From Escherichia coli (GTDB taxonomy: Bacteria; Pseudomonadota; Gammaproteobacteria; Enterobacterales; Enterobacteriaceae), in NCBI RefSeq assembly GCF_003019035.1, contig NZ_CP027447.1: 64,000 nucleotides of DNA; one strand, written 5' to 3'. The position numbers and the translations under genes are program-made. Shown here piece by piece: positions 10,060-12,024 of this stretch. The notes under the pieces are model-generated. The model made no database searches and was not told the DNA's origin. It saw nothing but the letters and a program-made list of their open reading frames with translations. Position 1 is the stretch's first letter; every line of letters begins with the position of its first letter.

Positions 10060-12024
10060 TCAGGCGGCGGTGTTCGCCATACGTTGTTCGCGGTTTATCG
10101 CCTGCAAGGCGGAGACATCAACAATCAGTGCCACGCTGCCGTCGCCAAGAATGGTCGCAGCAGAAATGCCGGGGACTTTGCGATAGTTACTTTCCAGGTT
10201 TTTAACCACAACCTGGTGTTGACCAATTAATTGATCCACCAGCAAGGCGTAGCGGCGACCGCCACTTTGTAAGATCACCACAATTCCCTGGGTAGCTTCG
10301 GTTTTCGCGCCCGCGACGTTGAACACTTTCCACAGTTCGACGATGGGCAGATATTCACCCCGCACTTCCAGCACCCGCTCGCCGCCTGCCAGTGGATGCA
10401 GATCGGCTTCACGGGGTTGCAGTGATTCCATGACAGCATTCAGCGGCAGAATGAAAACTTCATCCGCAACGCGTACGGACATGCCGTCGAGGATGGCCAG
10501 CGTCAGCGGCAGTAAAATGCGGATCGTCGTGCCAGTACCCTGCTTCGACTGGATTTCGACATGACCGCCCATCTCCTGGATATTACGTTTAACGACGTCC
10601 ATGCCGACGCCGCGCCCGGAGACGTCGGTGACCTGCTCTGCCGTGGAGAAGCCAGGTGCAAATATCAGCATCGCGACTTCGTCGTCGCTCATGTTTTCGC
10701 TTACAGTCAAACCTTGCGAGGCCGCTTTTGCCAGAATTCGCTCACGGTTTAGCCCTGCACCATCGTCGGTCACTTCAATGCAAATGTTGCCGCCCTGATG
10801 TTCGGCAGAAAGAATTAAATTTCCGACGCTGTTTTTACCTGCGGCGAGCCGTTTTTCTGGCAGTTCAATACCGTGATCGAGGCTATTGCGTACCAGGTGG
10901 GTCAGCGGGTCGATAATGCGTTCTATCAGGCTCTTGTCGAGTTCAGTAGAACTGCCCACCAGCGTCAGTTCTACCTGCTTGCCGAGTTTTCCCGCCAGAT
11001 CACGCACCAGCCGGGGATAGCGACTAAAGACATATTCCATCGGCATCATACGAATCGACATCACTGATTCTTGCAAATCACGAGCGTTACGTTGTAACTG
11101 CCCCATGCTGGTAATCAAATCACCATGATTAACCGGGTCCAGTTCACTGGAGCGCTGGGCAAGCATGGACTGGGTGATGACCAGCTCGCCGACGAGGTTA
11201 ATTAATTGATCAACCTTTTCTACCGCTACACGGATGCTGGTGGATTCACTGCTGCGCGTCGTTTTTTCCCGCTCCACGCGACCGGTTGGCGCTTGTTCGG
11301 CTGCCAGTTTAAGCACTGGTGGGGTGGATATTTTGGGCGAGACTTCTACTGTTTCAAAGGTAATCTGATCGGCTTCAATCACAAAACAGAGTACCGCTGT
11401 GATGTCATCTTCGGCGATGTCGCCCGTTAATATTGCCGAGAGAGAATCCGTCCCTTTCACCACGTCAGTTAACGTTGTCAGATGCCCCAGCTCTTCTTCC
11501 AGCAGGTCGACTTCGCCGGCCTTCAGGCGCGAAAGGATAATTCGTCGCGGCAACTGACTGCGACTCTGCTCATCTTGCGGTTCACTTTTGGCAACCACAC
11601 TTAATCGGGTCACTGCGGATGGCGTTTCGCCTTTCGCTTCTAATGCCAGTTGACGCAAGGCCTGGCAGATATAATCGAAGCTGGCAGCATCCGGCTCTTG
11701 CGACTGTTTATAAGCGTCGAGCTGTTCTTGCATGATGTCCTTCGTTTCCAAAAACAGATTGATAATGTCGGTGTTGAGTTGCATCTCACCTCGTCTGGCT
11801 TCATCGAGCAGGTTTTCCATCAGATGCGTGGTTTCCTGCAAAACGCTGAAGCCAAAGGTTCCTGCCCCTCCTTTGATCGAGTGGGCAGCCCGAAAGATGG
11901 CATTCAATTGTTCGGCATCTGGCGCTTCCGGCTGCAAAACCAGCAGATGCTGCTCCATATCAGCCAACAGTTCGTCCGCTTCATCAAAAAATGTCTGATA
12001 AAAATCGCTTATATCCATGCTCAC
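10060..12024 (-). CDS. cheA: Chemotaxis histidine kinase CheA
   Basis: Translation from GTG at 12024 ([20 protein letters not shown]...) matches CheA; H-box HSIKGGAG present. Confidence 0.94.

Follow-up and report, generated by a model that had tools for sequence, protein, structure and literature searches.

Escherichia coli K-12 cheA is said to have been described by Smith and Parkinson in 1980, and by Kofoid and Parkinson in 1991, as a gene with tandem in-frame starts from which a long (CheAL) and a short (CheAS) protein are made. The copy of cheA present in the 64,000-nucleotide stretch of E. coli DNA analyzed here (the window) raises the question of which codons initiate each of these proteins in this allele, and what in the sequence, other than the protein code, marks them as starts. 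The reading we favor, to which we assign a probability of about 95%, is that this is the ordinary E. coli cheA of the motA-motB-cheA-cheW operon, giving rise to two proteins from one reading frame. The tandem-start organization is already known, the cheA(L)/cheA(S) pair being cited as a textbook example of nested isoforms, and what the comparative analysis adds to it is modest.

Identity of the gene and comparison with K-12

The cheA coding sequence lies on the minus strand, which the first-pass annotation had left unstated, and runs from 12024 down to 10060, with 654 codons followed by a TGA stop at 10062-10060. Translation, Pfam matches and RefSeq support this assignment; the RefSeq cheA CDS has matching boundaries in K-12 and in FDAARGOS_497, the latter having a cheA 100% identical in DNA to the present one. 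The product, full-length CheA, shows the P1 to P5 domains in the enteric five-domain order, each of them above its Pfam gathering cut-off: Hpt (P1, residues 8-100, E = 1.6e-19), CheY-binding (P2, PF09078, residues 161-223), H-kinase_dim (P3, dimerization, PF02895, residues 261-324), HATPase_c (P4, PF02518, residues 372-508) and CheW-like (P5, PF01584, residues 514-640). The HSIKG motif with the phospho-accepting histidine is present in the translated P1 domain, the codon for His48 being located at 11881-11883 (minus strand) in the portion that belongs to CheAL only; on the basis of established knowledge of CheA, we take this residue to be the phosphorylation site. The flanking ORFs correspond to MotB and CheW by Pfam match, and the RefSeq gene order, flhC-motA-motB-cheA-cheW-tar-tap, is alike in K-12 and in FDAARGOS_497.

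Of 5426 complete E. coli genomes, 5380 contain an annotated cheA that this gene matches at 95-100% identity. Between 46 and 48 of the 5426 gave no match, presumably because they are non-motile lineages that have lost part of the flhDC-che region. Two of the matches sit on records labelled as plasmid, and genome H25 retains just the 3' 60% of the gene.

With respect to K-12 cheA (b1888), 34 nucleotide differences were found (98.3% identity), 29 of which are synonymous, while the other five cause the amino acid changes S158L, A192T, P200T, N259S and K484E. The first three are in or near P2 and K484E is in P4; all five changes are outside P1, and none of the allelic differences is near either start. 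Nucleotides 169-338 (codons 57-113) and the 40 nt before the GTG are free of differences, and hence the two initiation regions have the K-12 sequence. The two alleles also share operon position, the GTG start, a Shine-Dalgarno (SD) sequence overlapping the motB stop, and an ATG at codon 98 with AAGGA upstream; the alignment with K-12 that the first-pass annotation had suggested, along with the identification of the internal ribosome binding site and ATG, therefore ends in elements that are nucleotide-identical in both strains. Production of CheAL and CheAS by the present strain would be expected by extrapolation from K-12 through this identity.

For a wider comparison, orthologs were collected with a pattern scan for the His48 motif in species-representative genomes, which returned at least 120 loci. 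Among those listed, 113 had enough flanking sequence for an alignment of the P1 domain, and 24, counting the one in the window, came from Enterobacterales and showed the motB-cheA junction. This set does not extend to Salmonella, Shigella or Escherichia species other than E. coli.

Ten plus-strand ORFs of at least 60 aa overlap cheA (10060-12335), the longest of which has 138 aa and a TTG start (11650-12066), and the first-pass annotation had discarded such frames as artefacts. We agree, and regard it as extremely improbable that one of them, for example the 138-aa frame, is a real overlapping gene. When the synonymous codons of cheA were permuted keeping the CheA protein, the mean number of ORFs of this size was 7.1 and only 5.2% of the shuffles reached ten, and the 138-aa frame is uninterrupted in 3 of the 23 listed orthologs as well, all of which could be taken as signs of a gene. 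However, 138 aa is below the shuffle mean for the longest ORF (155 aa), a length of at least 138 aa being attained in 70% of the shuffles; the four longest ORFs lack a Pfam match even at E = 0.1; and between 2 and 7 in-frame stops interrupt the frame in 20 of the 23 listed orthologs. Its position is that of a codon-aligned antisense frame (offset 0), which is known for staying open by chance opposite coding sequence. As a set, the ten ORFs are at the upper 5% of the synonymous-shuffle expectation, none of them being individually long or conserved.

The GTG start at the motB junction

The reading frame opens at 12024 with GTG AGC ATG GAT ATA AGC GAT TTT (VSMDISDF), the initiation codon of CheAL, start(L), being the GTG at 12022-12024 on the minus strand. 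It is preceded by the SD sequence GAGGTGA (12029-12035, minus strand), whose last three bases are the TGA stop of motB (12031-12029), and by the 4-nt spacer CAGC (12028-12025). Both the GTG start and its closeness to motB had been proposed in the first-pass annotation, and both hold; the distance of 5 nt given there does not, since 4 nt separate the two codons, and five are obtained only when counting from base to base. The duplex of start(L) with the anti-SD sequence, at -10.2 kcal/mol, is the strongest among the 50 in-frame ATG, GTG and TTG candidates of cheA. A TTG at 12078, used as start by the ORF finder, was rejected, as it is inside the motB CDS and has no annotation support.

Within E. 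coli, the 90 nt centered on start(L) are conserved at 99% identity or more in 5286 of 5378 genomes. All 24 listed motB-cheA-type Enterobacterales orthologs have the GTG and, before it, GAGGTGA with the motB stop inside it, while the spacer of 4-5 nt that precedes the GTG is variable (CAGC, TAGC, TTTC, CCAC, TACC and others) and, beyond the SD, the sequences have diverged in the manner of motB coding sequence, which also goes against the TTG at 12078. At codon 2, 22 of them have AGC and the other two AGT, and because this codon varies only synonymously it appears to be translated.

These data bear on the alternative that the ATG of codon 3 (12018-12016), and not the GTG, initiates CheAL, which we consider very unlikely. 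ATG is the commoner initiator, GAGGTGA is also upstream of this codon, and there are divergent or second copies of cheA that do begin at the equivalent of Met3. Against this, GAGG is 13 nt away from the ATG and 7 nt away from the GTG, RefSeq annotates the GTG, and the invariant GTG and synonymous-only variation of codon 2 next to a variable spacer point to translation of codons 1 and 2 in the listed orthologs. Kofoid and Parkinson, in 1991, reportedly located both cheA starts by N-terminal sequencing of the proteins, which would also go against a start at codon 3.

The cheA copies of the Met3 type are five among those listed (L025, L028, L034, L071 and L108), and include those of Yersinia artesiana and Rosenbergiella and the second copies of Enterobacter sp. 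BIGb0383 and Pluralibacter gergoviae, the last two organisms having two cheA loci each, one of either type. They are devoid of the GAGGTGA-GTG-AGC junction and start instead at the ATG corresponding to Met3, with an SD of their own, and in three of the five a stop codon occupies the place of the GTG. Met98 is retained in all five. As far as these sequences can tell, this shows that the two extra N-terminal codons are specific to the motB-coupled arrangement.

Starting from GTG at 12024, ribosomes would thus use the GAGGTGA element to synthesize CheAL, the 654-aa kinase with domains P1 to P5 and His48. Given that this element overlaps the motB stop, initiation is probably coupled to motB termination.

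The internal start at codon 98

The first-pass annotation had anticipated a short isoform initiated at an in-frame methionine about 97 codons downstream of the GTG, and had named the absence of such a methionine, with a ribosome binding site near codon 98, as the result that would go against it. An ATG is found at exactly codon 98 counted from the GTG (11731-11733, minus strand; start(S)), and the sequence that precedes it, TTG GAA ACG AAG GAC ATC, contains the SD-like element AAGGA (11738-11742, minus strand), made up by the codons for K95 (AAG) and D96 (GAC) and separated from the ATG by 4 nt (CATC). Its anti-SD duplex energy is modest (-5.4 kcal/mol) and the spacer is short. The CDS derived from this ATG spans 10060-11733 (minus strand) and would encode a CheAS of 557 aa, corresponding to residues 98-654, without most of P1 and without His48.

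This agrees with what has been published for K-12 derivatives. CheAS is initiated at codon ATG-98, it is not essential for chemotaxis, and the M98L substitution eliminates it together with the polar localization of CheZ (PMC7696710); M98L has likewise served to keep the short variant from being expressed (PMC12808680). Other reports describe that the first 97 amino acids are missing from CheAS (PMC3708813), that cheA has two alternative initiation codons and an endogenous ribosome binding site for CheAS (PMC2716512), and that CheAS interacts with CheZ, the CheAL:CheAS ratio changing with growth between 4:1 and 1:1 (PMC1447658). A literature search on retapamulin initiation profiling found no ribosome-profiling data on cheA.

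The region around start(S) is nearly invariant in E. coli: over the 90 nt of codons 80-109, 5349 of the 5378 genomes show an identity of 99% or more. Met98 is ATG in all 24 listed Enterobacterales orthologs. In the broader alignment, methionine occupies column 98 in 35 of the 113 listed P1 domains, those of Enterobacterales, a few Halomonadaceae and Colwellia, and most of the remaining ones, including betaproteobacteria, have leucine, isoleucine or valine. The Halomonadaceae concerned are Vreelandella/Halomonas (L007, L040 and L101, with KDIMHEQ) and those of Colwellia are L010, L073 and L099 (DCMR); other Halomonadaceae and related gammaproteobacteria have the methionine at position 97 (KDML).

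The SD itself shows a different pattern. AAGGA is present in only two of the 24 listed orthologs, those of E. coli and Enterobacter sp. Ag1, while the other 22 have AAA GAT or AAA GAC instead of AAG GAC (AAA for K95 in 22 of 24 and GAT for D96 in 20 of 24). Being modest, closely spaced and restricted to two of 24 orthologs, the AAGGA element does not explain by itself the conservation of internal initiation, and judging from these alignments the E. coli SD is a lineage-specific feature. What is conserved upstream of Met98 is a run of codons, AAC (23/24), CTG (23/24), TTT (24/24), TTG (22/24) and GAA (24/24), in which the non-preferred codons TTT and TTG are included.

This conservation was evaluated in 16 full-length orthologs through the synonymous codon entropy at each position, taking as reference the other occurrences of that amino acid in cheA. 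The two deepest 9-codon troughs in the 654 codons are at codons 1-9 (-0.55) and codons 90-98 (-0.53). For the pre-specified window of codons 90-98, around 5e-5 of random codon sets gave values as low, and a pair of separate troughs of such depth appeared in 10 permutations out of 5000. The sequence of each initiation region is therefore constrained at the nucleotide level, beyond what the protein code requires.

The same analysis helps to weigh a second possible internal start, the ATG of codon 81 (11784-11782), which could be used instead of Met98 or alongside it for a third isoform. Directly before it there is an SD-like sequence, GAGGTGAG (11792-11785, minus strand), the anti-SD duplex of which is predicted at -9.1 kcal/mol, compared with -5.4 for Met98, and on the combined score for SD and accessibility Met81 is narrowly ahead (-0.8 vs +0.7). 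Other results make this start highly improbable, and it was rejected. The SD-like string is a chance product of codon choice that none of the other 23 listed orthologs has, and it ends 1 nt before the AUG, a poor spacing; the codons leading up to Met81 vary synonymously more than the average (+0.37, codons 73-81), which indicates no constraint; and both the AUG and the SD are predicted to pair with codons 67-68, the opening energy of the core being 7.0 kcal/mol. In the case of Met98, the SD-AUG core is highly accessible, its opening over -12 to +3 requiring 1.1 kcal/mol, and the site ranks third among the 50 candidates in accessibility over -18 to +12. Furthermore, M98L alone is sufficient to eliminate CheAS and polar CheZ localization in K-12, where the sequence is identical to that analyzed here (PMC7696710, PMC12808680). 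SD strength alone would have led to calling Met81 over Met98, and it is synonymous conservation and accessibility that favor the right codon.

The string before Met81 results from codons 77-80 (11785-11796, minus strand), where two consecutive rare arginine codons, AGA CGA, are followed by GGT GAG. GAGGTGAG could act as a ribosome pause site some 17 codons ahead of start(S).

A predicted hairpin and the initiation of CheAS

Folding of the RNA around start(S) predicts, in the minimum free energy structure as well as in the centroid, a weak hairpin flanking the start codon (11722-11757, minus strand). Its 5' arm, CUGUUUUUG, corresponds to codons 90-92 (11757-11749) and its 3' arm, CAAGAACAG, to codons 99-101 (11730-11722), so that the SD and the AUG are placed inside an 18-nt loop. 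The hairpin coincides with the trough in synonymous variation at codons 90-98, and across the 24 listed orthologs 96.7% of the cells at its paired positions allow standard pairing, compared with 41-64% in controls with the partner arm shifted by 1-3 columns. In the covariation test on these 24 orthologs no compensatory changes were observed, and the consensus structure reaches only -3.6 kcal/mol. Local folds at start(L), Met81 and start(S) are no stabler than those of shuffled sequences (z = +0.27 to +0.54), and a stable regulatory RNA structure near the cheA starts is thus not supported by the modeling. A search for inverted repeats gave none at start(L) or start(S), the hairpin, with its G-U pairs, being seen by RNA folding alone. 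We consider it as a conserved possibility, that of a weak structure whose function may be to present the start codon. Kofoid and Parkinson are said to have noted inverted repeats around the cheA starts, and the reading of the hairpin as a start-presenting element is consistent with them.

The remaining Enterobacterales orthologs (Citrobacter, Enterobacter, Pantoea, Erwinia, Dickeya, Pectobacterium and Brenneria, among others) share with E. coli the GAGGTGA-NNNN-GTG AGY ATG junction, Met98, the AAC CTG TTT TTG GAA run before it and the potential to form the start-flanking hairpin; all of them but Enterobacter sp. Ag1 differ from it in the AAGGA element. Co-expression of the long and short forms of CheA in Enterobacteriaceae was reportedly described by McNamara and Wolfe in 1997. 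A tentative explanation, which we think is possible although it is more probably wrong than right, is that in most Enterobacterales initiation at Met98 is independent of an SD and takes place through the weak hairpin formed by AAC CUG UUU UUG GAA ... CAG GAA CAG, with the AUG in an A/U-rich loop, the AAGGA of E. coli being a recent, lineage-specific strengthening that would raise the CheAS:CheAL ratio. If true, this would represent a small refinement of a known system and not a new one.

As for E. coli, synthesis of CheAS would take place when other ribosomes start independently at ATG98 (11733), within the region coding for P1, making use of the modest AAGGA in an A/U-rich, poorly structured stretch, where the flanking hairpin may contribute to presenting the internal start. 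The resulting 557-aa protein would lack His48; according to the literature, CheAS is unable to phosphorylate itself but anchors the phosphatase CheZ at the receptor array. What is observed directly here is the sequence of the two starts, which matches K-12 and hardly varies within E. coli, and the nucleotide-level constraint on both in Enterobacterales; the production of two proteins, and the loss of the short one in M98L mutants, are known from work on K-12 derivatives and would by sequence identity apply to the present allele.

One ORF giving two N-terminal proteoforms by means of an internal SD and start is also the case of infB (IF2 alpha/beta) and of the long and short forms of Salmonella SsaQ, and clpB (ClpB of 93 and 79 kDa) is another isoform pair with an in-frame internal start. 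In these pairs, as in cheA, a functional domain at the N-terminus is missing from the short form. The proteins and functions of infB, SsaQ and clpB are unrelated to those of cheA, and the mechanism alone is alike.

For this strain, the results mean that its cheA is intact, resembles that of K-12 and has the capacity for both CheAL and CheAS, and their import is mainly that of a correct annotation. For the Enterobacterales, the constraint found at both starts constitutes a comparative confirmation of the genetics of the 1980s and 1990s, and could guide studies on the ratio between the two isoforms.
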